A stretch of 64,000 nucleotides of DNA from an uncultured Spirochaetota bacterium (GTDB lineage: Bacteria > Spirochaetota > Brevinematia > Brevinematales > JAOACQ01), in contig CAVYGN010000002.1 of assembly GCA_963768055.1 (NCBI GenBank), positions 1,152,001-1,216,000 of the forward strand. Reading direction: 5' to 3'. Both the position numbers and the translations under genes were made by a program. The notes beneath the pieces are model-generated. The model was not told the DNA's origin. It was given only the letters and a program-made list of their open reading frames with translations, and did not search any database. The stretch's first letter is position 1; every line of letters begins with the position of its first letter. Shown one piece after another: positions 1 to 29,717 of this stretch.

Positions 1-63
1 ATAATTTATTGAATTAATTATCGGGAATTGGTGAGGGGGAAATGAAAGATGAGGGGGAAAACG

Positions 64-3904: not shown

Positions 3905-5446
3905 ATGGGGTACAGATTTATGAACGAACAGGATTACTATGACATTTACAGACGATGGAAAGCCGATCAAAGCATAAGTGAAATTTCCGAACAGGAAAAC
4001 AGGGATAGGAAAACAGTCCGACTAGCGATTCAAAAAATTATCGATTACGGCTTTGAAAAGGCGGGAGAAACAATAAGCCGGGAAGAATTCCATCTGAAAC
4101 GCCCCTTTGTAGGGCCTCCAAAAAATGAAAATAAGGCAAGCATACTTGAACGATATAAAGATGAGCTGTACGGGCTCATAAATGACCCGAAAAACGGAAT
4201 GAAACCCAAGACAGCCTTTGAAGTTGTCTGTATAAGGCATAATCTGGACATAAGCTATACAAGTTTCAAGAGATTCTCGATAAAGAGCGGCCTTACAGCT
4301 AAAGAATTAAAGGAAACCATCCGGATTGAAACTAACCCTGGTCAGGAGATCCAGCTTGACTACGGCAGGGCCGGCACAATGGAATACCTGGGGCACAACA
4401 AGATCGTGCAGTCTTTTATCGGAATAATGTCGAGTTCAAGGCTGCCATTTGTTCAATATGTCTATTCACAAAACCAGGAATCATTCGTTGAAAGCAATGT
4501 GGATATGCTGGAGTTTTACGGCGGTGTGCCTGTAAGAATATCCCTGGACAATCTGAAAACCGGCATCATATCACCGGACCTTTACGATCCTAAATATAAT
4601 CAGGCATATGCTGATTATGCGGAGTATTACAATACTTTTCTTGATCCTTGCAGGGTAAGGAAACCAAAGGATAAAGCCAAGATAGAGAGAATGGTCCCTG
4701 TTGCCAGAGAGCTTTTCAGAAAACTTAAAGCCCTTAATCCCGGAGCCTCGTTAAAGGAATTAAACATCAAAGCTCTGGAATGGTGCAGGTATGAATACGG
4801 GATGAGGAACCATGGAACAACAGGTTTGAAACCAATAGAGGTATTTGAAACGATAGAGAAGCCCCTGCTTAAGAAGCTTCCTGAAGAAAGGTTTAAGACT
4901 CCCGTATGGAAAAAGGCCAAGGTACACCCGGACCAATTTGTCCAGTTCGAGAAAAAGAGGTATTCCCTGCCTCCCAGGTATCGTGGAGAGGAAGTCTTTG
5001 TCAGGAGAACCGGCAATTTAGTGAAGATCTTCTTCCAGTACAAACTTATCCGGGAATTTGTCGTACCAAGAGGACATGCAGCATATGAAAAGACTGATTT
5101 TCCGGAGAATACAAGGGAGATGCTATCCGGGGGATACCCCAAGTATTTATTAGACCAGTCGAGGAAATACGGAGAAGCCGCATACCAGTTGATCTTTCAA
5201 ATCCTTGCTGTTCATGCTAATCTGAATTGCCGGAGGGCCCTGGGGTTCTTAAGTGTAATGGAAACATTCTCGAAAGAAGAATACTTTAATAAAGTCTGTG
5301 AAAGAGCAATATCGGCAAAAATAACCGATCCCAAACTATTCAAAAGCTGGATGGAAAATGAAGGAAAGGATAAACAGGACACCCTGTTTGAAATTTCAGA
5401 AGAAGGGTCTGAAATGACCAGGGACGGCAGCTATTACTTTCAATAG
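3905..5446 (+). CDS. istA: IS21 transposase
   Basis: PGQEIQLDYG, FYGGVP..DNLKT, KDKAKIER (DDE), VQFEKKRYSLP. Confidence 0.95.
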   Translation: MGYRFMNEQDYYDIYRRWKADQSISEISEQENRDRKTVRLAIQKIIDYGFEKAGETISREEFHLKRPFVGPPKNENKASILERYKDELYGLINDPKNGMKPKTAFEVVCIRHNLDISYTSFKRFSIKSGLTAKELKETIRIETNPGQEIQLDYGRAGTMEYLGHNKIVQSFIGIMSSSRLPFVQYVYSQNQESFVESNVDMLEFYGGVPVRISLDNLKTGIISPDLYDPKYNQAYADYAEYYNTFLDPCRVRKPKDKAKIERMVPVARELFRKLKALNPGASLKELNIKALEWCRYEYGMRNHGTTGLKPIEVFETIEKPLLKKLPEERFKTPVWKKAKVHPDQFVQFEKKRYSLPPRYRGEEVFVRRTGNLVKIFFQYKLIREFVVPRGHAAYEKTDFPENTREMLSGGYPKYLLDQSRKYGEAAYQLIFQILAVHANLNCRRALGFLSVMETFSKEEYFNKVCERAISAKITDPKLFKSWMENEGKDKQDTLFEISEEGSEMTRDGSYYFQ

Positions 5447-5464
5447 AGATAATGAGGAGGAAAT

Positions 5465-6211
5465 ATGGAACATCAGAATCAGCTTGAGGCAAACTTAAGG
5501 AGGTTAAAGCTTCCTGGGATGCTATTCAACCTTCCTATGCGGATCAGGGAGGCTCAAGAATCAAACCTGGACTATGGAGAATTTTTCTCTTTGTTAGTTC
5601 AGGATGAATTATGCCAGAGGGATAATAACATGCTCAAAAAGAGGCTGAGAGAAGCGAAGTTCGGCCAGGAAAACACTTTCGAGGGGTTTGATTTTAATTT
5701 CAATGAGAGCGCTATCCCTTCAAGGCTTATTCGTGAAATCGCGTCCTGCCGTTTCATGGATATGAGACAGTTTGTTGTCATCGCCGGGCCTCCCGGCATA
5801 GGTAAAACATGCATTGCAAAATCAGTCGGCCATGAGGCCTGCAGAAGAGGAAACACAGTTCTTTTCAAGAAAGCCGCGGTTCTTCTTGAAGACTTGAAAA
5901 GCGAAAAGCTTATGTTTAAGAATACTCTATTCAGAAAGTGTATTAAAACAGACCTCCTGATAATAGACGATTTCGGATTTAAAAAACTCGACAATGAAGA
6001 AACGGAATACCTATACCGGATTGTCGATGAAAGGCTTGGAAACAGGTCCATTATTCTGACAAGCAACCGGCCTCCGGAGGACTGGCTGGCAATCTTCCCT
6101 GATCCTGTGATTGGAGGGGCTATGCTTGACCGCCTTGTTTCAGGCTCAATTAAAATCCTGGTAAAATCCAAAGATGGAAAATCTTTCCGGAAGGAAGGGA
6201 AAACTATTTGA
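5465..6211 (+). CDS. istB: IS21 helper ATPase
   Basis: Walker A GPPGIGKT, LLIIDDFG, LTSNR, LDRL. Confidence 0.95.
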   Translation: MEHQNQLEANLRRLKLPGMLFNLPMRIREAQESNLDYGEFFSLLVQDELCQRDNNMLKKRLREAKFGQENTFEGFDFNFNESAIPSRLIREIASCRFMDMRQFVVIAGPPGIGKTCIAKSVGHEACRRGNTVLFKKAAVLLEDLKSEKLMFKNTLFRKCIKTDLLIIDDFGFKKLDNEETEYLYRIVDERLGNRSIILTSNRPPEDWLAIFPDPVIGGAMLDRLVSGSIKILVKSKDGKSFRKEGKTI

Positions 6212-9570: not shown

Positions 9571-9905
9571 ATGACTTCCAAACTAGGGCGAGGATCCCCG
9601 ACAGTCCTTACACAGGATCGGGAAGATGGTTCGGAACCTTCACATGGACGGCTGGCAGGGGTCTAATTTCGACGGCCTGAAGGCGGACGTGAAAAAGATC
9701 GTCGAGGGGATGAAGTAAGGGAGCAAAACCCCAAAGGAACGCCGTTTTGCCCCGCCACAGCCTCTCTTTTGCCTTCTCATGTAATATTTTCTTCCTACGA
9801 ATGAAGGCCGCCGGAGGGCTAAAAAGAGGGTAATATGAAATGCATGAGAACTCCCGGACGCTTCAAGAATATTTTGAATAAGCTTATAAATCTTTTTTAA
9901 CGCAA

Positions 9906-10904
9906 TTATTTTGTTGAAAACTTAGTGACGCTGTTACCTCCATAATTAGCTGTCCACATATTGACCCCGTCAAAAGCAATGCTATAGGGATTGGCACCGG
10001 TTCCTGTATAAGTAGTCATAACTCCCGATGGTGTAATTTTAGTAACGCTGTTACCTCCATAATTAGCTGTCCACATATTGACCCCATCAAAAGCAATGCC
10101 AATGGGTTGGTCCCCCGTGCCTGTATAAGTAGTCATAACTCCCGATGGTGTAATTTTAGTGACGCTGTTATCGGCCCAATTAGCTGTCCACATATTGACC
10201 CCGTCAAAAGCAATGCCAGCGGGTTGGTTCCCCGTGCCGGTATAAGTAGTCATAACTCCCGATGGTGTAATTTTAGTAACGCTGTTATCGGCAAAATTAG
10301 CTATCCAAATTTTAACTCCGTCAAAAGCAATGCCATAGGGATTGGCGCCGGTTCCTGTATAAGTAGTCATAACTCCTGATGGTGTAATCTTAGTGACGCT
10401 GTTATCGGTAAAATTAGCTGTCCACATATTGACCCCGTCAAAAGCAATGCTATAGGGATTGGCACCGGTTCCTGTATAAGTAGTCATAACTCCCGATGTT
10501 GTAATCTTAGTGACGCTGTTATTGTCCCAATTAGCTGTCCACATATTGACCCCGTCAAAAGCAATGCCAGTTGTATAGGGCCCAGTTCCGGTATAGGTTG
10601 TCATAATTCCCAATGGTGTAATCTTAGTGACGCTATTATCACCTTGATTTACAGTCCACATATTGACCCCATCAAAAGCAATGCCAATGGGTACTTTCCC
10701 CGTGCCGGTATAAGTTGTCATAACTATTGTTGGTTTTGAACTGGTGCTGGACGAAGACGAAGAACTGGTTGTATAGGGAGATGAAAACCAAGACGAACCG
10801 GATCCAGGTGAATTCGAACAACCGGTTAATACTGCTCCGGATAAAGTGAATAAAACCAGCTTTATTGTTAAAGCAAGAAATAGATTGGATAATTTTAATT
10901 TCAT
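9906..10904 (-). CDS. Lipoprotein with seven 39-aa NHL/Vgb-like repeats (probable 7-bladed beta-propeller)
   Basis: Lipobox-like VLTGC, Ser-rich linker, 7x MTTYTGTG.....IAFDGVNMWT.N...NSVTKIT. Confidence 0.85.
   Translation of the reverse strand: MKLKLSNLFLALTIKLVLFTLSGAVLTGCSNSPGSGSSWFSSPYTTSSSSSSSTSSKPTIVMTTYTGTGKVPIGIAFDGVNMWTVNQGDNSVTKITPLGIMTTYTGTGPYTTGIAFDGVNMWTANWDNNSVTKITTSGVMTTYTGTGANPYSIAFDGVNMWTANFTDNSVTKITPSGVMTTYTGTGANPYGIAFDGVKIWIANFADNSVTKITPSGVMTTYTGTGNQPAGIAFDGVNMWTANWADNSVTKITPSGVMTTYTGTGDQPIGIAFDGVNMWTANYGGNSVTKITPSGVMTTYTGTGANPYSIAFDGVNMWTANYGGNSVTKFSTK
9909..10721 (-). repeat. Seven near-identical 117-bp coding tandem repeats
   Basis: 117-bp periodicity visible in the DNA. 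Confidence 0.93.
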
Positions 10905-11149: not shown

Positions 11150-11743
11150 ATGAAAATAGGCTATGCCAGGGTATCGTCGAAGGACCAGAACCCCGAGCGC
11201 CAGCTTGAGGCCCTGAAATCCGCCGGCTGCGAGAAGATCTTTACCGACAAATTATCAGGAGCGGAGAGGGAAAGGCCGGCCCTGGGCGAAATGCTGAACT
11301 TCATCCGGGAGGGCGATATCCTCATCGTCGCCTCGATCGACCGCCTGGGGCGCTCAACGATCGACCTCCTTGAGATCATCCGGATGATCAGGAAGAAGGG
11401 AGCGATCGTCGAATTCCTGAAAGAAAAAATCGACCTGGCCACTTCCATGGGAAAATTCTTTTTCACTATACTTTCCGCCCTGGCGGAACTGGAACGCGAT
11501 TATATCCGTGAAAGACAGTCCGAGGGCATCAAAATCGCGAAAGCAAAAAACGTCTACAAGGGCCGGAAACCCCTGCAAAAACCCGCAGAGTGGGACTCCC
11601 TGGCCGCCGAGCTGGTCGCCGGCATGATATCCGGACACGAAATGCGCAAGCGCCTGGGCGTATCGATCGCCACATATTACAAAATGCGCCGGCAGTACGG
11701 CCCGGAGATTACCGGGAATATTCCTCAATTGGATCGAACCTAA
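11150..11743 (+). CDS. Serine recombinase (resolvase/invertase family)
   Basis: MKIGYARVSS.DQ, DRLGRS, AELERDYIRER..EG, C-terminal HTH. Confidence 0.95.
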   Translation: MKIGYARVSSKDQNPERQLEALKSAGCEKIFTDKLSGAERERPALGEMLNFIREGDILIVASIDRLGRSTIDLLEIIRMIRKKGAIVEFLKEKIDLATSMGKFFFTILSALAELERDYIRERQSEGIKIAKAKNVYKGRKPLQKPAEWDSLAAELVAGMISGHEMRKRLGVSIATYYKMRRQYGPEITGNIPQLDRT

Positions 11744-11805: not shown

Positions 11806-12477
11806 CTAAGAGTTGGGTATGAGTATAGACCTTTTTTTAGAGCTTATTCGCCCGGTGGTAGTTTCTGATATCTTGCTATTATTCTTATACGTCTTCCACG
11901 AAATTTCATATTCCTCAGCCTGGTTGCCCCAGGTCGTCCAGTTTTCCCTTGCGCCCCTGCCGAATAGTTCAAGATAAGGCCCTGGACTGCAGCTTTCAAT
12001 AATCTGATACTGTTCATCCGGCTTCCGGGAATGTTCTCTTTTCATGGTTCTGATGATATTTACCTGGCTTCTCCCTGCTTCTAAAGTCCTCATTTGTCCC
12101 CTGATACCGAAAAGCAAAAGCTCAGTCGTATTCCTGAAATAAAATCCTACCCCTCTGCCATCCGGCCCGCCGTCTTTTCTGATTTTATGCCAGACGATAT
12201 TAGACTTATAATTGAACCCCCATGCTTTCATCACTTCAAGGCCCTCGGGGAGAAGCGCGTTAGGAACCCATAAATATAAATGCGCCGTTTCTTCCGCAAC
12301 CATGTAAACAGGAATTTCACCTATATCGTGAAGATTTAAAGTTTCATACCTTTTCAGCCTTTTATGCTCAGGTGCCATTTTCCCGGTCCTGTTCTGGAAT
12401 TGCCAGGGCGGATCGGCCAGAATCGTTTTAAATTTTCTATCGCTTATGAAATTGATGAAATCGTTCGCGGCGCTCAT
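11806..12477 (-). CDS. MT-A70 family N6-adenine DNA methyltransferase
   Basis: ILADPPW, HLYLWV, AWGF.YK, REHSRKP, YLELFGR. Confidence 0.93.
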   Translation of the reverse strand: MSAANDFINFISDRKFKTILADPPWQFQNRTGKMAPEHKRLKRYETLNLHDIGEIPVYMVAEETAHLYLWVPNALLPEGLEVMKAWGFNYKSNIVWHKIRKDGGPDGRGVGFYFRNTTELLLFGIRGQMRTLEAGRSQVNIIRTMKREHSRKPDEQYQIIESCSPGPYLELFGRGARENWTTWGNQAEEYEISWKTYKNNSKISETTTGRISSKKRSILIPNS

Positions 12478-13067
12478 TATTCTTTCTCCATATAAAGATT
12501 TTTGGAAATACCGAATACTAATAACGGACAGCCGGCTCCGCTTCCACCTTCAATCCTCGGAAGAAGTTTTGACATATGGGTTGTCGAACTACCGTAAGAA
12601 GCGCCTCTTCCTAATTCATCAAATATATCTTGCAGATCATCACAGCGGGTAATAATTATACCGACGCTGATAGCCCTCAGATCAAACAAAAGTCTAAAAT
12701 TGTTCAGGTCCCTGTCAAAGAAAGGATCTTTGTTGTTCCATTCCATTTCAAGGGCGGTTTTATTCTTATAGCAATCTATGCTGTGTGTCGGGGATTCTCT
12801 TATTTCTTCATCTACTTTAACAGCCGTTAAAAACTTCTTTTCAATCCATCCGCGAGCGCCCATGAATTCATCTATCCATTCAGCTATTTTTGTTTTTCTT
12901 CCTCCGGGACTAAGAATCCATGATTTTTTTAACTTAAAGGCTTTTAGCATTTCAATGATATCCTTCCATTCCGAAGGGTAATCACTTTTTAAGATCGCGC
13001 AGGCATGCTTCCATTCGTGAACTTCAAAATTATTCCGGATAATTTCTGGAAGATCTAAAATACTCAT
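12477..13067 (-). CDS. BglII/BstYI-family restriction endonuclease
   Basis: TH.IDCYKNKTALEMEWNNKDPFFDRDL.NF, VGIIIT; overlaps the methyltransferase start. Confidence 0.82.
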   Translation of the reverse strand: MSILDLPEIIRNNFEVHEWKHACAILKSDYPSEWKDIIEMLKAFKLKKSWILSPGGRKTKIAEWIDEFMGARGWIEKKFLTAVKVDEEIRESPTHSIDCYKNKTALEMEWNNKDPFFDRDLNNFRLLFDLRAISVGIIITRCDDLQDIFDELGRGASYGSSTTHMSKLLPRIEGGSGAGCPLLVFGISKNLYMEKE

Positions 13068-13415: not shown

Positions 13416-13919
13416 ATGAGTGAGCCGATAGACAATAAAAAAAATAATTATGCCTTTATCGATAGCCAAAACTTAAACCTTTCTATTCAGGATCAAGGCT
13501 GGAAACTGGATTTTAAAAAATTCAGGGTTTATTTATCTGACAAATACAAAGTCCGGAAAGCGTTTTTATTCATTGGGTATGTTCAAACCATGCAAAGCCT
13601 TTATACTTCCCTGCAGCAATATGGCTATATATTGGTATTCAAACCGACACTTGATTTAGGGCATGGAAAAATAAAGGGAAACGTTGACGCGGAGTTAGTT
13701 TTACATACGATGATTGAATACCCGAATTACGAAAAAGCTGTTATAGTTTCAGGTGATGGAGATTTCTATTGTCTGATTGAATACCTAATAAATAATAATA
13801 AACTTGAAAAGCTTATCGTCCCGAATAGACATAGGTATTCTTCTCTTTACAATAACTCGATTATACGCCCATTTATGGGTTTTATAAATGACCTGAAAGG
13901 CAAATTAGAGCATAAATAA
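13416..13919 (+). CDS. NYN domain (LabA/DUF88, PIN-like) nuclease
   Basis: AFIDSQNL, KGNVDAELVL, IVSGDGDF acidic catalytic motifs. Confidence 0.92.
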   Translation: MSEPIDNKKNNYAFIDSQNLNLSIQDQGWKLDFKKFRVYLSDKYKVRKAFLFIGYVQTMQSLYTSLQQYGYILVFKPTLDLGHGKIKGNVDAELVLHTMIEYPNYEKAVIVSGDGDFYCLIEYLINNNKLEKLIVPNRHRYSSLYNNSIIRPFMGFINDLKGKLEHK

Positions 13920-13975
13920 AAAAAGAGAGGCATTCCGCGGGACGAGCCCTTTGGGACAGCCTCTCATCGTGATTC
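13917..13975 (-). ncRNA. Candidate ~58-nt small RNA convergent with the NYN gene
   Basis: Minus-strand TTGACA(14010-14005)-17nt-GATAAT(13987-13982), followed by a long hairpin GAGAGGC...GCCTCTC and a U7 tract. Confidence 0.5.
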
Positions 13976-14244
13976 AATAATATTATCGTCAATTTATTCA
14001 CAAATGTCAATAATAAGCCGCTTATTTTTACAGATCTGCCGCCAGCGCTCCGGCCATGATCAACATGCCGCAGCGTCAAAATCCCAGAAATATTGGCGAT
14101 TTAACCCCCGACTATGCCCCTAAAGCCACCTATTTCTGCACCAAGTTTATTATTATATTTTCTGTCTGCATCTTTTTTCTAAGAATCTCACTTAAATAAT
14201 ATAATAATAGCGGCGGTGGTAAAAAGTTTTATAGGAGGCATAAA

Positions 14245-14433
14245 ATGAGCAGGATAAAACCGATTCCAACCTCACAACCAAATCAGTTCATTATTCCAAC
14301 ATACGATATTCCTGGAGGTGGACAGATTCACGAGACATTCAAGATCGATCGCTATGGAAATCTTTATAAAGAGCATTCCACTATTGAAATTCCTGGAGGC
14401 ATAAAAGGTCATGTTAATTGGGATAAAGATTAA
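14245..14433 (+). CDS. Small 62-aa hypothetical protein
   Basis: AGGAGG RBS, TATAAT at 14200, internal [DE]IPGG repeat. Confidence 0.7.
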   Translation: MSRIKPIPTSQPNQFIIPTYDIPGGGQIHETFKIDRYGNLYKEHSTIEIPGGIKGHVNWDKD

Positions 14434-14524: not shown

Positions 14525-15430
14525 TCATTCTTTTAATGCTCCCACAAGTCTGAGTAATATAAATTCAGTGGTTACCAAACAAATTTGTCTAAGGAGTCTG
14601 GCTTGATCTTTTTCTGCCATGTATGGGTGTGAACCTGTATGACTTAAAAGCCCATAAATCTTATCAATAGCTTCTCGTTCTTTTTTTTCTAAAAGAGACT
14701 CTGTTTCCAAATACTGGCGAATTAAAACTGGTTTATCAATTATTGAAGCTGTAAGTTTTATTCCTTTTGTTTTCTCCGAATGTCTATTTGCCACTTGTTG
14801 AAATATTGCTTCAAAAAATTTACGGGCATTTCCTATACTGTCGCTCCAACGACCGGCTACATAATGATCCTCGGTAAGTTTCAGAAAATTAAATGTCTGT
14901 TGTCTATCAGGAAGCTTTAATTTATTATGAAGAGACTCAAGGTAGCCCATCTCAGCTTCAACGTCCAAAACTTCTTCTTCTGTCTCTCGCAATTCTCCAT
15001 CATAAAATATATATCCATCTATTTCTAAGCGGCGAATCATTTCATCATATAACTTTTTATCTTCTTCGCTAATATAAGAAGCATCTAAAGTTTGAAAATA
15101 TAAAATATAGTCTCTTGCTAAGTTTTTAAGATAAGATTGACCAAGTTCTTTCCTTTTTTCCCAAGACCAGTTAATAGTAATGTTATAAAAAGATTCTCCC
15201 GTATGAATTTTTAACAGCCATTCCTTTAATTCTCTTGTTGTTTGTATTGTTTTCACCATATTACAGAACAAAGCCTCATACTCGTTTTCATAAAGAAAAT
15301 CGTAGAAATAGTTATTATTGACATTCTCTTTTATTGATCTTCCTCCAAAGGCTGTTTGATAGTATGATTGATGTGAAAACATTTTTGTATAAATTTCAGC
15401 GATGGAAATAGCAGATTTACGACTAATCAT
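14525..15430 (-). CDS. Hypothetical protein with Abi_C/HEPN-like C-terminus (candidate anti-phage)
   Basis: SIGNARKFFEA...YGLLSHTGSHP...A.L resembles abortive-infection C-terminal domains; family not confirmed. Confidence 0.55.
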   Translation of the reverse strand: MISRKSAISIAEIYTKMFSHQSYYQTAFGGRSIKENVNNNYFYDFLYENEYEALFCNMVKTIQTTRELKEWLLKIHTGESFYNITINWSWEKRKELGQSYLKNLARDYILYFQTLDASYISEEDKKLYDEMIRRLEIDGYIFYDGELRETEEEVLDVEAEMGYLESLHNKLKLPDRQQTFNFLKLTEDHYVAGRWSDSIGNARKFFEAIFQQVANRHSEKTKGIKLTASIIDKPVLIRQYLETESLLEKKEREAIDKIYGLLSHTGSHPYMAEKDQARLLRQICLVTTEFILLRLVGALKE

Positions 15431-16825: not shown

Positions 16826-17723
16826 ATGCCAATTTTGAATTTAAATTATACAAGGGTCAAAGCAGATGAAAAGAAGTTTGGTTCTGGTTTTAGTTTAAAT
16901 TCACTTAGTAGAAGATTTCGAAAGATTTAATCCTTTAATTCTCGGTTTAGGAGATATTTCTATAGAAGGCGAATATATTCAAGCATTAGCGGGTTTTTTA
17001 GATTTAAGTGGATTTACTGATTTCTGTAATCAAGTGGATTCTCATCTTGTGATTCCTGAATTTATGAAAAAATACCTTGAGTGGATGTTTAAAAAGATCG
17101 CAGATCAAGCTTTAGAAAGTTCAGATGGAATTAATGTAAGAATATGGGGTAATCTACCCTTTTATGCTAAGTTCTTAGGAGATGGCATTCTATTTCTTTG
17201 GAATACAAATTCATGTGGAGGTTTTAGTGGATTATGTAATATTGTTATCCAATTATACAATTTAACTGATGAATATAAAAGCGAATTTATACCGATTATA
17301 TCAAAAAGTGTTGTAAAACCACCCAAATTACTTAGGTGTGGAATAGCTCGCGGACAAATTATTTCAATTGGTAATGGTCAAGATTTTGTCGGTTCATGTA
17401 TAAATGTTGCAGCAAGATTACAAAAGTTATCGGATTTAACTTTTGTAATTTCACGAAGAGGTTTTGATATAAATAAAATCCCAAAACATCCTTTAAATGA
17501 TATTCTTGAACTTAGAAAATATAAAATTCGTGGAGTTGGTAAAGATGAGTTAATCTGGGTTTTAAAAGAGGAGTTCCAAAATCTAAAAAAAACAGAGAAG
17601 AATAATTTTAAGAACCCATTGCCGTCCGGCAGGTTTAGTGACCCAGGGTCGGCGTTTTTAGTGACCCGCCCCCCTGTCTACCTTCAGTATAGCCTTTTCA
17701 GATTTTCAGGTCAAAGATTTTAA
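16826..17723 (+). pseudogene. Class III adenylate/guanylate cyclase; frameshift near 16895-16910, stop codon hit by IS21
   Basis: FLDLSGFTDF (upstream of the called start), KFLGDG, GSCINVAARLQ; native end AAC CCA T|AA split by the IS. Confidence 0.8.
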
Positions 17724-18467
17724 CTTATTTTTCTTGATGAAATTATTCAACCTGAAACTTTTACCATCAATAACTATTTTAACCGAACCGTCTATCAAGC
17801 GGTCCATAATCGCACTTCCAATTAAGGGATTAGAAAAAACCGCAGACCATTCAGATATATCTCGGTTGCTCGTAATAATGGTCGAGGCTTTGGTATACCG
17901 TCCATTAATAACTTCATATAGATCATCCTGCTGCTGCTGATTTAAATCCTGAAGCCCAAAGTCATCAAGAATGAGAAGTTCGATTTTGAAGATGTTTTTC
18001 AGCTTTAAATTATAACTTCCATTGCCTCTTGCGGCGTTCAAGGAGCGCAGGAGCAAAACAGTGTTCTTAAACACTACCTCATGGCCTCTCCGGATAGCCT
18101 CATGTCCGATCGATTGAGCCAGGTGCGACTTTCCGACCCCGGAATGGCCTAAAAAAAAGATGTTTTCTTTGTTTTTAAGGAAATAACAGGTTGCCAGTTC
18201 CTTTATAACAGCTTCATTAATCTGAGGATTAAAACTAAAGTTGAAACTTTCCAGTGTTTTGTCATATTCAAGACCGCTCTTTTTTAACCTGATTTTCATA
18301 GCTCGCTGTTCCCTTCTTTCTGATTCTTCAAGCAGTAGACCGAGCAGGAAATCAGTATATGATGTCTTTTCATTCTGGGCCTTCTGGATATGATAATCAA
18401 GATTTTCCAATACCCCCGAGAGTTTCAAATGTTTAAGCCGGGGTATTAATTGTGCCCTGTCGTCCAT
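17706..18467 (-). CDS. istB: IS21 helper ATPase
   Basis: GHSGVGKSHLA, LLILDDFG, ITSNR, IMDRL. Confidence 0.95.
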   Translation of the reverse strand: MDDRAQLIPRLKHLKLSGVLENLDYHIQKAQNEKTSYTDFLLGLLLEESERREQRAMKIRLKKSGLEYDKTLESFNFSFNPQINEAVIKELATCYFLKNKENIFFLGHSGVGKSHLAQSIGHEAIRRGHEVVFKNTVLLLRSLNAARGNGSYNLKLKNIFKIELLILDDFGLQDLNQQQQDDLYEVINGRYTKASTIITSNRDISEWSAVFSNPLIGSAIMDRLIDGSVKIVIDGKSFRLNNFIKKNKLKSLT

Positions 18468-18482
18468 AATATTTTCCTCCTC

Positions 18483-20033
18483 CTATAATTTGAAGTAACT
18501 GCTATCCCTGGCATACTTGAACGGTAGGTAAGTTTTAGGTGGATGATTCTCGTCATAAGGCTCTTTCAGATCAAGCTCTTTAACCAGGATGCTCTTTACA
18601 CTTGTATAGTTCGGAGTATCATAGAAAATTGCCCTCCTGCAGGCCGCTTCTAAGCGCTCTTTCGGATATTTCTTAGAAAGGAACAAAATACCTCTCGCAG
18701 AACGGAACCCGTCTATCTGTCTATTTGAAAGTATCCTTTCAACAACTTCCAGTGTCGTTTTTCCTATGTTTCCAGCCCAGGTAAGCAGGGATTGTGATGT
18801 TTCTGCCATATATTCTTCTTTGTAGGGCGGCGCGTGAAGGGGATTATGTGTATATTTCCATTTTATTCCGGATTTCTCATGAAGCGCTATCAATTCGTAC
18901 CCGGAATATACTTTTACAGACTTTGAATCTGCGCAGACCATTACTTCCTGGCCGATATACTTGTAAGGGACGCTATAGTATGAGCTGTCGTACTGAATCA
19001 GCCATTCGGGCCTTACAACGCAGGTTTTCCAGTTTATCATATCCCAATCTGTTAAAGGGAGCTTTGAGAGGGTCTTTGATTCTTCAATAAACATTTCGCA
19101 GGGGGATCTTCCTACGCCATGAATAATTCTGATATCTGCCGTGTCTTCATCCCATTTTTTAAGCGACTCTTCAAGATCAATTGATATGGGTATTTTGTGG
19201 CCTTTCTGTTCCTGTTTCTCGATGAAATACGGCCAGAAGTTTCTTTTAATATATTTGATATCATTCTCTACGCCGCCCTTGTGTTCCGGTTTCCCGGGAA
19301 GACATGGACTGATCATGAAATCGTAATACTTGGCCATTTCAAGAAAACTTCGATTAAAGATAGGGTCATAAAATGCGGCTTTTACAACGGCCGATTTCAG
19401 GTTGTCCGGCACGATCTTCTTCGGTATTCCTCCAAAGTGATGAAAAGAATGTATGATGCATAGAAAAAATGTCTCTTTTTTCTGGTTATAGACCACCTCG
19501 CGATATGCCTTACGGCTCTTTCTAAGCCTGCCGGAGAATACCCAGGCTTTTCTGTTCCTGCATTCCAGCGGATCATAGACTATGCCGAGATATCCGAAAT
19601 CCACTTCCATAACCCCGTCTTCAAGGGGTCTGATCATCACGCTTGGTTTCAAAGCAGGAAATTTTCTCTGTATATACCGCCGGACGGTTGTTTCGGATAT
19701 ATTTGCACAATCAGAAAATTCACTGATCAGCTTGTGAATAACCACATAACTTTTTTCATCTTCCCTGTATTTTTTTAGTTTCTCAATATGATTATCCAGG
19801 ATGTGAGGTTTTCCTTTGATATTTTCCGGCTCATTATATGCCAGGTCCATTTCTTTTTCTGTGGGCACGTCTGATGACGATGAAAGCCATTCCTTTTTAT
19901 CGCCTATATCCTTTATTTTTCTTATGACTTCCCGGTGTGTCCCGGTTTCTTTGTGGATATTTCTGATAGATTCGCCTTTCTTTAGCCGGGTCAATATTTC
20001 GATGAGTTGTGCCATGGTTTTTACCCTCGCCAT
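18483..20033 (-). CDS. istA: IS21 transposase
   Basis: MEVDFG, FGGIPKKIVPDNLKS, PEHKGGVE, YYSVP. Confidence 0.95.
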   Translation of the reverse strand: MARVKTMAQLIEILTRLKKGESIRNIHKETGTHREVIRKIKDIGDKKEWLSSSSDVPTEKEMDLAYNEPENIKGKPHILDNHIEKLKKYREDEKSYVVIHKLISEFSDCANISETTVRRYIQRKFPALKPSVMIRPLEDGVMEVDFGYLGIVYDPLECRNRKAWVFSGRLRKSRKAYREVVYNQKKETFFLCIIHSFHHFGGIPKKIVPDNLKSAVVKAAFYDPIFNRSFLEMAKYYDFMISPCLPGKPEHKGGVENDIKYIKRNFWPYFIEKQEQKGHKIPISIDLEESLKKWDEDTADIRIIHGVGRSPCEMFIEESKTLSKLPLTDWDMINWKTCVVRPEWLIQYDSSYYSVPYKYIGQEVMVCADSKSVKVYSGYELIALHEKSGIKWKYTHNPLHAPPYKEEYMAETSQSLLTWAGNIGKTTLEVVERILSNRQIDGFRSARGILFLSKKYPKERLEAACRRAIFYDTPNYTSVKSILVKELDLKEPYDENHPPKTYLPFKYARDSSYFKL

Positions 20034-21019: not shown

Positions 21020-21307
21020 TTATGATACTCGCCGTTTTAAGATATCATAAAAATTTTCTCTTTTCCCAATCATCAGGATTGTAACAATATTTTCATTTTC
21101 ATTGATGATAAAACATATCCTGTATTCTGTTCTTACTTCCTTGAAATGATAAGAATATATTCCATTTAGGTTGCCTGTTAATTTTTCATATTTGAAAGGG
21201 TCTCTAAGAATATTGTCAATATGACTCTGCTGAATTTTTTTAATAACTGTGTAATCCAATGATTTTAAATCTTTTTTGACTTGAGGATGATATTCATCCT
21301 TAAACAC
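21020..21307 (-). CDS. RelE/ParE family toxin
   Basis: HPQVKKDLK.LD, LTGNL.GIYS.H, YRI.F, IGKRENFY. Confidence 0.9.
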   Translation of the reverse strand: MFKDEYHPQVKKDLKSLDYTVIKKIQQSHIDNILRDPFKYEKLTGNLNGIYSYHFKEVRTEYRICFIINENENIVTILMIGKRENFYDILKRRVS

Positions 21308-24383: not shown

Positions 24384-24866
24384 ATGAATAGTCAAATTCG
24401 TTCAGAGGAATTCAGGAAATCTATCGTTCAAAAGATGTGTATGCCAGGAGGAAAAACAGTATCTGAACTGAGCCAGGAAATAGGAGTATGTGAACAAACC
24501 CTTTACAACTGGAGGAAAATGATCCAGAATAATGTATCCAGAGGATTCCAGGATAGAAGCCCGAGAGGCTGGAAATTATCTGATAAATATCAGGCGGTAG
24601 TAGACGCAGCAAGCCAATCGGGAGAAGAGTTAGGACAGTGGTTGAGAAAAAATGGTCTCCAGTCGACTCATATCGAACTCTGGAAACAGGAGTGTTTATC
24701 AGTGATATCTAATAACTCATACAGAGAAGAAAACAAGGGTTTGAAAGCAAAAATCATAGAGTTAGAAAAAGAAATTAACCGTAAGGATAAAACTATAGCC
24801 GAGGTTACTTCTCTGCTGGTGCTTAAAAAAAAACTGAACAAGCTGTTCGGGATCGAGGAAGATTAA
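24384..24866 (+). CDS. IS3 transposase OrfA
   Basis: N-terminal HTH, coiled coil, LLVLKKK ending on an A9C slippery site (24825-24834). Confidence 0.9.
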   Translation: MNSQIRSEEFRKSIVQKMCMPGGKTVSELSQEIGVCEQTLYNWRKMIQNNVSRGFQDRSPRGWKLSDKYQAVVDAASQSGEELGQWLRKNGLQSTHIELWKQECLSVISNNSYREENKGLKAKIIELEKEINRKDKTIAEVTSLLVLKKKLNKLFGIEED

Positions 24867-24871
24867 CTCCA

Positions 24872-25900
24872 TTGGATATACGCATAGATATCTGTGCCTT
24901 GATTAATGAGGCTGTTACGACAGGGGCCAGCAGGGATAAGGCTTGTGAAGAATCTGGCTATGATATAAGGACCATACAGCGCTGGAATAAAAATCTTGAG
25001 GGAGACAGAAGAAAATTGAGAAATGTAATGCCTTCAAATGCCCTGTCGGCCGAAGAAAGGGAGGAGATCATCTCCTGCTGTTGCAGCGAGAGATTTAGAG
25101 ATATGACGCCGAATGAAATAGTGCCCATGCTGGCAGAGGAAGGTCGGTATATAGCATCAGAATCATCTTTTTACCGCGTTTTAAAGGACAATGATTTGCT
25201 GCACCATAGATACGAAACGAAGCCGAAAACGGCAAGGAAAACGCCAAGAGAACTGGAAGCGACGGGTCCTAATCAGGTATGGAGTTGGGATATTACATAT
25301 ATATCCAGTCATATAAAAGGTAAGTATTTCTACCTCTATATGATCGAAGATGTCTGGAGCCGTAAGATAGTCGGCTGGAAAATGCACGAGGAGGAAAGCT
25401 CTGATCATGCCGCAAGAATGGTGGCAGAGATCGGAGAAACCATTGATTTGAAAGGCTTGTATTTACATTCTGATAATGGTTCTCCTATGAAAGGGGCTAC
25501 GATGTTAGCGACCTTGCAGAGGTTACAGGTTATGCCGTCGTTTTCAAGGCCGAGTGTAAGTAACGATAACCCTTACTCAGAATCATTGTTTAAAACATTG
25601 AAATATAATGTGAAATACCCAGGCAATTTCGAGACAATGGAATCGGTAGAAATATGGATGCAAAATTTTGTAGACTGGTATAATAATAAACATCTTCATT
25701 CAGGGATCGGATATGTCACACCAGCACAGAGACATGAAGGTAAAGATAAGGCGATACTCCTGAAGAGAGCGGAAACTTATGCGGCTGCAAAAAGCAGACA
25801 TCCTGAAAGATGGTCAGGAGAATCTAAAAAATGGGAACGGATAGAATCGGTATTTTTAAACCCGAGTAAGACTAACAAGGAATCGTTGGTTGCGGCGTAA
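24872..25900 (+). CDS. IS3 transposase OrfB (DDE), probably fused to OrfA by -1 frameshift
   Basis: PNQVWSWDITY, LHSDNGS, NDNPYSESLFKTLK. Confidence 0.95.
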   Translation: MDIRIDICALINEAVTTGASRDKACEESGYDIRTIQRWNKNLEGDRRKLRNVMPSNALSAEEREEIISCCCSERFRDMTPNEIVPMLAEEGRYIASESSFYRVLKDNDLLHHRYETKPKTARKTPRELEATGPNQVWSWDITYISSHIKGKYFYLYMIEDVWSRKIVGWKMHEEESSDHAARMVAEIGETIDLKGLYLHSDNGSPMKGATMLATLQRLQVMPSFSRPSVSNDNPYSESLFKTLKYNVKYPGNFETMESVEIWMQNFVDWYNNKHLHSGIGYVTPAQRHEGKDKAILLKRAETYAAAKSRHPERWSGESKKWERIESVFLNPSKTNKESLVAA

Positions 25901-28016: not shown

Positions 28017-29717
28017 TTGCCTGTCGTTTTTTATCAATAACCCATGTACATTGAGACCTCATCCCGTTATAATAAATGTAAGAAAAACGGGAGTAATCTA
28101 TGGCAAACTTCGAGCATAATACAAGCAGCCAGGGATTGTTTTTATCTATCCAACTTGAAGATCAGTTTGATCCGGATAGCCGTGAATATATTATAAAAGA
28201 GTTTATTCAGAAAAATGTAAAAATTGAAGATTTTGAAGAAGAATACAAGAACGATCATACTGGCCGTAAAATCAAAAATCCTCAAGATGTCGTCGCGGCA
28301 ATCCTTTACGGTTACATTACAGGAAACCGTTCAAGCCGCAAGATCGAAGAACTCCTGAAAACTCACATCGGGTTCATGTATATCTCTAATTGTCTTAAGA
28401 TTGATCATTCGATCATTTGTAATTTCAAGATTAAATTTCGGGAACAGATTAAAAATGTTTTCAGCAAAATGCTTTATGTAATGAATGAAATTGAAATGAT
28501 AGACTGGAGCATTGTTGCAGGCGACGGAACTAAGATTAAGGCTTATGCGAGTAAAGGCCAGAACATAGGCAGGGGATTCATACAAAAACTTCTTGAAGCA
28601 TATCACGAGACGGCTGACAAGATAGTTGAACGGGATATTGAACTTGAAAAAGATTTCGAAGAGGGTAAAATCGACCCTAAAGAGCATGATGCGAAAAAGA
28701 TGCGCATTATCAGACAGAAGCGAAAAATTGAAAAGGCTATTTCCAAGATGAATAAATGCATCGAAGATGATGAAACGAACAAAAAATCTGAAAAGAAACG
28801 GGTTAATCTAACAGATCCGGATAGTGGTTTGACAGTGTCAGGTTCGAAAGATGGATATATCCAGGGGTATAATGCGCTGCTTATGTTAAGCAATAATGAT
28901 GTTGTTCTTGATTTTGATGTAATCACTTATGAAAAGGAATGTAATTATACAGAAGAATTGGTCAATGGGGTTGAAGAGCTTAAGAAGGATTTTGGAGCTG
29001 AAGAAGAAAGCAAATATTTATTTGATTGGGGATTTCAAAACATGGAAAAAACACTCAAGCTCGAGGATAAAGGGCTTGATATGTATATTGATGTCAGGGA
29101 AAGGGATTTCTGCGATAAATCCGAAAAGCGGAAAAATTTTAAGTTAATAAATACAGAGGGACAATATAAACTCAAATGTCGTAATAATAAGGAAACAAAG
29201 GGATATTGGAATAAGAGAACCAATAGTTTCTCATTCCTGTTTGACCGCAAAAAGTGTAAGGGTTGTCCTTTCATGCCAGAATGTTATAGTAAGACGAAGG
29301 AAACGACTTTACATAAGACAGTTTCGTATTATAGATTCGAGGTTGAAAATTGGGATAAGATAGAAAAATACATGAATAAATTCCGAAGCGAGGAAGGTCA
29401 AAAAATATACTCGAAACGAATAGGTAAAGAACATGTTCATGCAAACATAAAAAACCAGCGTAACTTTCAACAGACTTATTACCGGGGAAAGTCAAATGTC
29501 AGGATGGACCTCTGCTGGGCGGTTCTGGCACAGAATATGTGTCGTTATATCAACTATATGAGGAAATAGGAGGGAATTTGGTAGGATTTCAACCATTATA
29601 AAAAAGCTGTTTCAATCTTTGGAATTTATCCGAGGGCTGACCAAACTTTTTCAAAAATTTAAGCATGATATCGTAAGAGAATCCCTGTTTTTTTAAATTG
29701 TATTAAACGACAGGCAA
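28017..29717 (+). mobile_element. IS1182-family element
   Basis: 13-bp perfect IR TTGCCTGTCGTTT; 5-bp DR ATACG at 28012-28016 and 29718-29722. Confidence 0.9.
28100..29569 (+). CDS. IS1182-family transposase
   Basis: LYGY..G.RSSRKIE, DGTKIKAYAS, NLTDPDS, QGYN, CKGCP, Y.KR...E. Confidence 0.9.
   Translation: MANFEHNTSSQGLFLSIQLEDQFDPDSREYIIKEFIQKNVKIEDFEEEYKNDHTGRKIKNPQDVVAAILYGYITGNRSSRKIEELLKTHIGFMYISNCLKIDHSIICNFKIKFREQIKNVFSKMLYVMNEIEMIDWSIVAGDGTKIKAYASKGQNIGRGFIQKLLEAYHETADKIVERDIELEKDFEEGKIDPKEHDAKKMRIIRQKRKIEKAISKMNKCIEDDETNKKSEKKRVNLTDPDSGLTVSGSKDGYIQGYNALLMLSNNDVVLDFDVITYEKECNYTEELVNGVEELKKDFGAEEESKYLFDWGFQNMEKTLKLEDKGLDMYIDVRERDFCDKSEKRKNFKLINTEGQYKLKCRNNKETKGYWNKRTNSFSFLFDRKKCKGCPFMPECYSKTKETTLHKTVSYYRFEVENWDKIEKYMNKFRSEEGQKIYSKRIGKEHVHANIKNQRNFQQTYYRGKSNVRMDLCWAVLAQNMCRYINYMRK

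Follow-up and report, generated by a model that had tools for sequence, protein, structure and literature searches.

Antitoxin RNAs that are convergent with their toxin gene and overlap its 3' end are known from the pairs txpA/RatA, bsrG/SR4 and Fst RNA I/RNA II, and two type I toxins, SymE and RalR, are themselves nucleases. The NYN proteins form a family within the PIN superfamily, for which the excerpted text of the published classification requires four conserved acidic metal-binding residues (PMC5499597). Here we analyse a stretch of 64,000 nucleotides from an uncultured Spirochaetota bacterium (contig CAVYGN010000002.1, positions 1,152,001 to 1,216,000; 'the window' hereafter), in which the gene of an NYN nuclease is faced, on the opposite strand, by a predicted gene for a small hairpin RNA. 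Comparison with homologous loci indicates that the RNA gene is real and antisense to the NYN gene, and that the two genes make up a compact, horizontally mobile unit of about 0.65 kb, which recurs almost unchanged across many bacterial phyla. In the window, this unit comprises the following features.

13416-13919, plus strand: NYN (LabA-like, PIN-fold) nuclease gene of 167 aa, with its stop codon TAA at 13917-13919 (from the list of open reading frames and Pfam)
13918-13975, minus strand: predicted small RNA of about 58 nt, made of the tail GAAUCACGAU, an interrupted hairpin and U7; its 5' end is placed from the -10 box
13966-13975, minus strand: single-stranded 5' tail GAAUCACGAU, in which AUCAC is common to all three RNA types described below
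13925-13965, minus strand: interrupted hairpin, with an outer stem GAGAGGC/GCCUCUC (7 bp), internal loops and an inner stem
Within 13925-13965, minus strand: hairpin apex, an apical loop with GU at its end and CC closing it
13918-13924, minus strand: U7 tract, the intrinsic terminator of the RNA, whose last two U overlap the NYN stop codon
13982-13987, minus strand: -10 box GATAAT of the small-RNA promoter
14005-14010, minus strand: -35 box TTGACA of the small-RNA promoter, at which the conserved unit ends on its right-hand side

An initial annotation of this DNA had described the nuclease gene, the minus-strand promoter, the hairpin and the U7 tract, and each is found where it had been placed or a few bases away. 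By itself, the window sequence is weak to modest evidence for an RNA gene. The promoter boxes, with their spacer of 17 nt, score 11/12, and no promoter-like site from 12.8 to 14.8 kb scores better; such sites are frequent in this AT-rich stretch (14 observed versus 7.6 +/- 2.7 in shuffles). Folding energy cannot pick the strand, because the hairpin folds about equally well on the minus strand (-21.2 kcal/mol, z -2.09; 5 of 200 shuffles as good) and on the plus strand (-21.3 kcal/mol, z -2.35; 4 of 200). A simple terminator scan did not flag the hairpin, since its rule demands an uninterrupted stem and a 3-8-nt loop. Could this be an ordinary terminator hairpin of the NYN gene, next to a chance promoter-like match in AT-rich DNA? 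A single-sequence fold some two standard deviations better than shuffles and equal on both strands, with promoter-like sites so frequent, is what such an explanation would predict; yet it is refuted by conservation, covariation and promoter statistics over more than 130 loci, and we grant it practically no chance. The RNA gene stands above chance because promoter, tail, hairpin and U-tract recur together at NYN homologues, with covariation.

Homologous loci were taken from two independent collections: a genome set with one genome per species (the best 80 of at least 521 confirmed relatives, with 599 pattern-matching stretches listed) and a metagenome set (the best 80 of at least 552 confirmed relatives, again with 599 pattern-matching stretches listed). 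Titles in the genome set name Omnitrophota, Elusimicrobia, Planctomycetes, Chloroflexi, Deltaproteobacteria, Nitrospirae, Aminicenantes, WOR-3, Fibrobacterota, Lentisphaerae and many lineages of the candidate phyla radiation (CPR)/Patescibacteria; these phylum names are the labels of metagenome-assembled genome records and may be imperfect. A promoter, an AUCAC tail, a long hairpin and a T-run lie antisense just 3' of the NYN gene in 76 of the 80 genome loci. Among the other four, three are cut by a contig end yet match the RNA model in part, and one (L057) carries the RNA gene inverted. In 79 of the 80, the two genes converge and overlap. The initial annotation had suggested looking for the hairpin, its CATCGTGAT flank and an antisense promoter downstream of NYN homologues; all three proved to be conserved there.

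Three types can be distinguished among these RNAs. Type A comprises 48 sequences, including that of the window, and in it the RNA overlaps the NYN coding sequence by the stop codon only. Type B (22 sequences, from CPR) has a longer inner helix, and the NYN reading frame extends into the hairpin; type C comprises five sequences, and two loci (L064 and L068) harbor odd variants outside the three types. Types A, B and C have in common the 5' AUCAC and the apical loop with a terminal GU, closed by CC. Tail columns A3, T4, A6, G8, A9 and T10 are invariant in the 48 type-A sequences, and the tail takes the forms AUCACCAACGG in CPR. A covariance model built from type A alone (R1) finds the RNA directly 3' of NYN in 51 genome loci and in the window, always at E <= 3e-10; the window match, at 13919-13975 on the minus strand, reaches 68.9 bits (E 1e-15). 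In the metagenome set, R1 gives 62 strong and 8 weak matches in the 80 loci, all directly 3' of NYN. The other 10 have no R1 match at E <= 1, R1 being a model of type A only, and one of them (L175) ends at a contig end. Even a homologue on a viral contig, 48% identical, retains promoter, hairpin and GGUUUUGUCC apex.

The proposed structure is well supported by sequence variation. In the type-A alignment, 95.5% of 576 cells are in standard pairs, versus 53-67% when the partners are slid, 8 of the 12 stem pairs have changed on both sides, and none of 500 shuffles matches any of five measures. Types B and C taken together show 87.5% of 432 cells paired, versus 38-67% with the partners slid, and 11 of 16 pairs changed on both sides. 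A second set of 65 matches (58 distinct) yields 98.1% paired cells and 9 of 12 pairs changed on both sides, in an alignment made by the covariance model and hence biased towards it. G-U pairs outnumber A-C pairs by 31 to 7 in type A and by 27 to 18 in types B and C; therefore, selection acts on the strand antisense to NYN. The type-A asymmetry also backs the initial view that the U tract serves the minus strand.

The predicted strong sigma-70 promoter of the RNA and its terminator are equally persistent. In 72 of 77 cassettes, AUCAC is preceded at a fixed distance by a TTGACA-16..18-TATAAT promoter scoring at least 9/12 (at least 10 in 58 and at least 11 in 32); of 1520 random control positions from these loci, 2.4% score as well. 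Conservation is position by position in both hexamers (-35 box: T 74, T 74, G 72, A 74, C 68, A 53; -10 box: T 70, A 76, T 62, A 56, A 28/C 24, T 75, out of 77 cassettes), and the 16-18-nt spacer is not conserved. A run of at least four T follows the hairpin in 75 of the 77. An own promoter, a covarying structure and an intrinsic terminator, the attributes of an independent small-RNA gene, are all indicated by these comparisons. In 1128 pairwise comparisons of type-A cassettes, the RNA averages an identity of 0.770 and its unpaired columns 0.765, whereas NYN third codon positions average 0.395. Unpaired columns thus stand far above third codon positions, and therefore the primary sequence of tail and loop is constrained, not the fold alone. 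The RNA fold and much of the unpaired sequence are under strong purifying selection.

This RNA corresponds to no family that we could recognize. Rfam 15 at gathering threshold returned no match over the whole 64-kb window; a permissive Rfam scan of 13850-14060 gave chance-level matches only, the best sub-threshold one being L20_leader at 16.2 bits against a required 58.7; and ARAGORN detected no tRNA and no tmRNA between 13 and 15 kb. Our limited survey of the open-access literature on NYN, DUF88 and PF01936 turned up no description of the NYN-RNA pair. The initial annotation had inferred an undescribed module of a nuclease and an antisense, independently promoted noncoding RNA, and within that survey the inference is supported: the arrangement recurs at homologues, without an Rfam family or a published account. 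It had also been said that the RNA holds no credible ORF. The consensus does contain an AUG with an in-frame UAA, yet the G of this AUG covaries as a stem base (columns 13/55 show G-C, G-U and A-U pairs) and single-base indels shift the frame, in the window included, so that a coding role was rejected. A dispersed repeat was likewise ruled out, the element being single-copy: the window RNA is the only strong R1 match in the 3.69-Mb genome.

The nuclease appears intact, to judge from its predicted NYN fold and invariant acidic residues. It matches the Pfam family PF01936 over residues 14-129 with 45.7 bits (E 1.3e-11), above the curated cut-off of 24.2, and a profile of 28 homologues matches the structure 2qip (VPA0982 of Vibrio parahaemolyticus, a protein of unknown function) at E 4.6e-12. 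The AlphaFold2 model (pLDDT 88.2, pTM 0.84) is closest to the same structure in Foldseek (E 1.8e-7, TM 0.68/0.70), and the NYN domains of MARF1, 5yaa_C and 6fdl_A, lie at TM 0.58-0.65. Judged by the overall predicted fold, the protein has the PIN-like alpha/beta architecture without a helical insert after strand 2. As far as sequence can tell, the four metal-binding acidic residues of the family are accounted for, five acidic residues (D16, D91, E93, D114 and D116) being invariant in the 28 homologues. PADLOC reports nothing but a weak NYN domain match (E 6e-6). The subfamily is large and tightly conserved: at least 8000 candidates all pass E <= 0.001, the best 120 of which are 67-100% identical and 157-196 aa long, and homologues from different phyla remain 57-79% identical to the window protein, with no OST-HTH or other extra domain.

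Where does the unit begin and end? Pairwise blastn similarity between cassettes usually runs from about codon 11 to 50-110 nt past the last codon, which corresponds to the RNA promoter. Upstream of the NYN start, nothing is shared across the 80 loci, neither a conserved 5' region nor a target site for the RNA, as judged by eye without a formal motif search. Two loci (L045 and L067) have 90% identical DNA and different flanks; their identity begins about 55 nt upstream of the ATG and stops precisely at the RNA promoter's -35 hexamer, and the shared upstream stretch contains TTGAAA-17-TATATT, a possible NYN promoter. The upstream neighbor lies on the NYN strand in 66 of 78 loci, at most 20 nt away in 26 of those 66. 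The 78 upstream neighbors are mutually unrelated and are mostly housekeeping genes (SecA, CTP synthase, SHMT, DNA ligase, ClpB, FtsY, RecQ, TsaD, Asd and HisB among them), with RadC, a helicase-PLD protein (4 loci), SIR2 and Fic also present. No conserved protein partner occurs among these 78 (72 downstream ORFs were listed, without a Pfam scan), nor does any upstream neighbor encode a recombinase that would travel with the unit. The NYN gene was found in none of 60 relatives of the window genome at E <= 1e-20, four of the same genus included. It is these unrelated flanking genes and the absence from all 60 relatives that argue for a mobile unit of about 0.65 kb.

Sharp borders, many unrelated contexts and a conserved imperfect palindrome at one end might also suggest that the hairpin has its role in the DNA itself, marking the recombination site or the end of a gene cassette (in the manner of attC, or of a transposon-end hairpin), the promoter-like boxes being incidental; the asymmetry between wobble pairs could arise in single-stranded DNA as well, through G-T pairing. 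We regard this as highly improbable. Hexamers conserved at a fixed distance around a free 16-18-nt spacer and a T-run in nearly all cassettes are the signature of a transcription unit, no second conserved end signal was seen by eye upstream of NYN, and no recombinase accompanies the unit.

Two side observations concern the cassettes themselves. In four loci (L030, L039, L046 and L047), which are partly syntenic, NYN starts 9-17 nt inside the end of a gene for a helicase with a PLD nuclease, of about 700-1000 aa, and the cassette may hitch-hike on a mobile defence gene. In two others, fragments of a second NYN gene lie upstream of an intact cassette (L031:2373-2675 and L086:90-383); these are maybe tandem or decayed copies.

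What would the RNA do for its neighbor? We see an even chance that the unit is a mobile NYN ribonuclease (RNase) with the RNA as its cognate inhibitor, following a toxin-antitoxin or abortive-infection logic. NYN would be a harmful or tightly controlled RNase, to which the abundant RNA would most likely bind directly, in a type-III-like mechanism, with the 5' AUCAC tail and the apical loop, itself conserved, as the parts recognized. As a possible second route, the RNA could pair with the complementary 3' end of the NYN transcript. The pattern is the one seen in modules with an RNA antitoxin: the nuclease is mobile and patchy in its distribution, a protein partner is absent, and the small RNA has a strong promoter.

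Exceptions to the usual arrangement are informative in this respect. In L057 (3500-3600), the whole RNA gene, with promoter, RNA and terminator, is inverted and points in the same direction as an intact NYN gene, whose frame ends at a TGA within the -35 box. Five carrier genomes each have a single NYN gene with a single RNA gene beside it; one of the five (G064) also holds a decayed relic (L100:113-186) that has lost its promoter, has no recognizable NYN frame and carries a 17-nt palindromic insertion in the apical loop. In a sample drawn independently of NYN, 151 genomes of one phylum, the RNA model is found in 10 genomes and the NYN profile in 10, nine of which have both. The RNA without NYN occurs in G100, with two orphan RNA genes (L186:792-849 and L187:541-598) that share upstream flank, promoter and terminator; there is no NYN gene within 1.3-1.5 kb of them, nor elsewhere in the assembly at E <= 1e-15. 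The NYN profile without RNA corresponds to G132, which has only a paralogue, 30% identical. The nine shared genomes and this RNA-less paralogue are the grounds for regarding the RNA as specific to this NYN subfamily: it travels with this subfamily and with nothing else, and orphan RNA genes seem to exist. Finally, in 2 of the 80 loci (L043 and L079), two tandem hairpin modules stand behind a single promoter 3' of NYN, and the second module of L043 resembles the CPR type. The inverted gene, the G100 orphans and the two-hairpin loci make action in trans possible; together with the conservation of unpaired positions, they are the reason to propose a trans-acting RNA that would be recognized in a sequence-specific manner, most simply by NYN.

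Alternatively, the RNA could act as a type-I-like antisense, by pairing with the 3' end of the NYN transcript, the resulting duplex leading to cleavage and decay or blocking expression, without any contact between protein and RNA. The sequence of the RNA is fully complementary to the DNA that immediately follows the NYN stop; the overlap is convergent in 79 of 80 genome loci; in the CPR forms, where the NYN frame enters the hairpin, the RNA is antisense to the last codons; and no U-tract follows the hairpin on the plus strand, as read at the locus, so the NYN transcript would have to read through. The convergent antitoxin RNAs and nuclease type I toxins named at the outset are precedents. This mechanism nevertheless seems rather unlikely to us. 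Compensation in the stem and 76.5% identity in unpaired positions, against 39.5% at synonymous-like sites, exceed the needs of a terminator, and such stem covariation and unpaired conservation are unexpected under cis-antisense control because complementarity comes free there. Moreover, the RNA gene remains intact both in the inverted locus and in the assembly that lacks NYN, and in type A its overlap with the coding sequence amounts to a stop codon.

A nuclease so tightly linked to a structured RNA of conserved sequence, conserved 5' terminal motif included, could also use this RNA as a cofactor, a substrate or a fixed guide: a ribonucleoprotein would act on some other RNA, or NYN would process the RNA, and no inhibition would be involved. 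This we find improbable. No segment of the RNA is variable, which makes a programmable guide unlikely, and pairing of tail and loops with the genome's own 16S, 23S and 48 tRNAs is no better than that of shuffled probes, which equal or exceed it in fractions of 0.70 and 0.72. Nor does the genome hold an excess of sites complementary to the tail. With duplexes at shuffle level and no genome-wide enrichment, a fixed guide against rRNA or tRNA was discarded. The likeness of the 5' AUCAC(C) to the AUCACC near the 3' end of 16S rRNA, over 5-6 nt only, was given no weight.

Returning to the RNA as inhibitor of NYN, several points weigh against this interpretation. The excerpted classification lists NYN.COG1432 as of unknown function and mentions no RNA partner (PMC5499597), and the Pfam NYN family is without a demonstrated toxin role. 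The near-universal convergent overlap fits an antisense mechanism as well, and may be ancestral. The inversion is a single event, since L057 and L165 are the same contig, retrieved once from each collection, and G100 is a draft genome, which weakens the case of the orphans. As for the structure, one measure, 'further pair types', does not rise above shuffles in types B and C (335 of 500 reach it). A role in defence, in particular, is not indicated by context, because just two viral contigs carry the unit and the neighbors are mostly housekeeping genes.

If the RNA is nonetheless an inhibitor, the unit might represent a class of RNA antitoxins in its own right, an idea that we advance tentatively. 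An NYN toxin would be neutralized by a directly bound, convergently encoded single hairpin RNA, in a minimal selfish cassette of about 0.65 kb present in more than 10 phyla, including reduced CPR genomes. The cassette would often be lodged behind essential genes so that host transcription drives the toxin, and orphan RNAs would be anti-addiction genes.

The surroundings of the unit in the window are a variable, mobile region. Directly upstream of NYN, on the other strand, lies a type II restriction-modification pair (11806-13067) made of an MT-A70 methyltransferase (PADLOC MTase_II, E 1.5e-90) and a BglII-family endonuclease, with a serine resolvase gene just beyond it (11150-11743). Two IS21-type elements (IstA and IstB), at 3905-6211 on the plus strand and 17706-20033 on the minus strand, lie in opposite orientation with the cassette between them. 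They share no inverted repeat of 60 nt or more and are therefore different copies that form no obvious composite transposon. The initial annotation spoke of a defence island; the label fits this stretch only loosely, the neighbors being the restriction-modification pair, the two IS21 elements and a ParE gene, and it does not extend to other genomes, where the neighbors are mostly housekeeping genes. The ParE-like toxin gene is at 21020-21307 (minus strand), and further on there are an IS3-type transposase pair at 24384-25900 and a DDE transposase at 28100-29569, both on the plus strand. By the RNA promoter, two ORFs (14245-14433, plus strand, 62 aa; 14525-15430, minus strand, 301 aa) have no match in Pfam, NCBIfam or PADLOC. 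Seven tandem units of 117 nt (39 aa) were seen at 9795-10796, inside a 332-aa ORF (9906-10904, minus strand) with a beta-propeller match (Vgb_lyase).

These results define a family of structured small RNAs with unusually clean comparative support, from more than 130 independent loci, and give a first functional handle on a large subfamily of NYN/LabA-like nucleases, with at least 8000 protein clusters. Should the RNA inhibit the nuclease, toxin-antitoxin systems would gain a family in which both the toxin fold and the RNA architecture are new. Uncultivated lineages such as CPR and Omnitrophota, in which RNA regulation is hardly known, harbor the unit in abundance. Its natural variants, inverted, orphan and tandem, are ready tests of protein binding versus antisense control, and its position flush behind housekeeping genes suggests a route by which a selfish cassette could secure its expression.

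How does this unit compare with described systems? The protein itself is of the NYN.COG1432/LabA-like kind (PF01936; 2qip), with which it shares the Pfam match, the fold and the conserved acidic residues; the window subfamily is distinct in carrying a partner RNA, which the 30%-identical paralogue lacks. TnpB and IscB with their omega RNAs are likewise small mobile units in which a nuclease gene has a conserved structured RNA at its 3' end, but here the RNA is antisense, with its own promoter, about 58 nt long and devoid of a variable guide, and the NYN unit has neither transposon ends nor a transposase.

With type I systems (txpA/RatA, bsrG/SR4 and Fst; SymE/SymR and RalR/RalA), the unit shares a convergent small RNA that overlaps the 3' end of the partner gene, with a common terminator region, and a strong, constitutive-looking RNA promoter. 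The usual type I toxin is a small hydrophobic membrane peptide, whereas here it would be a 167-aa protein with a soluble nuclease fold. Furthermore, the unpaired RNA sequence is conserved across phyla, and the RNA gene survives inversion and the loss of NYN, which would be unexpected for a strict cis-antisense antitoxin.

Type III systems (ToxIN, CptIN and TenpIN) differ from the NYN unit in toxin, RNA and layout. Their endoribonuclease is of the ToxN/AbiQ type, whereas the present fold is NYN/PIN-like; their RNA is an array of direct repeats of 34-36 nt, instead of a single long hairpin; and this array lies upstream, in the same orientation and on the same transcript, before a terminator, whereas the RNA gene here is downstream and convergent, with its own promoter. 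What they have in common with it is a predicted endoribonuclease next to a small, structured RNA that is, as predicted here from the genes, highly expressed, the lack of a protein antitoxin, a compact mobile organization and, in L043 and L079, RNA modules in tandem.

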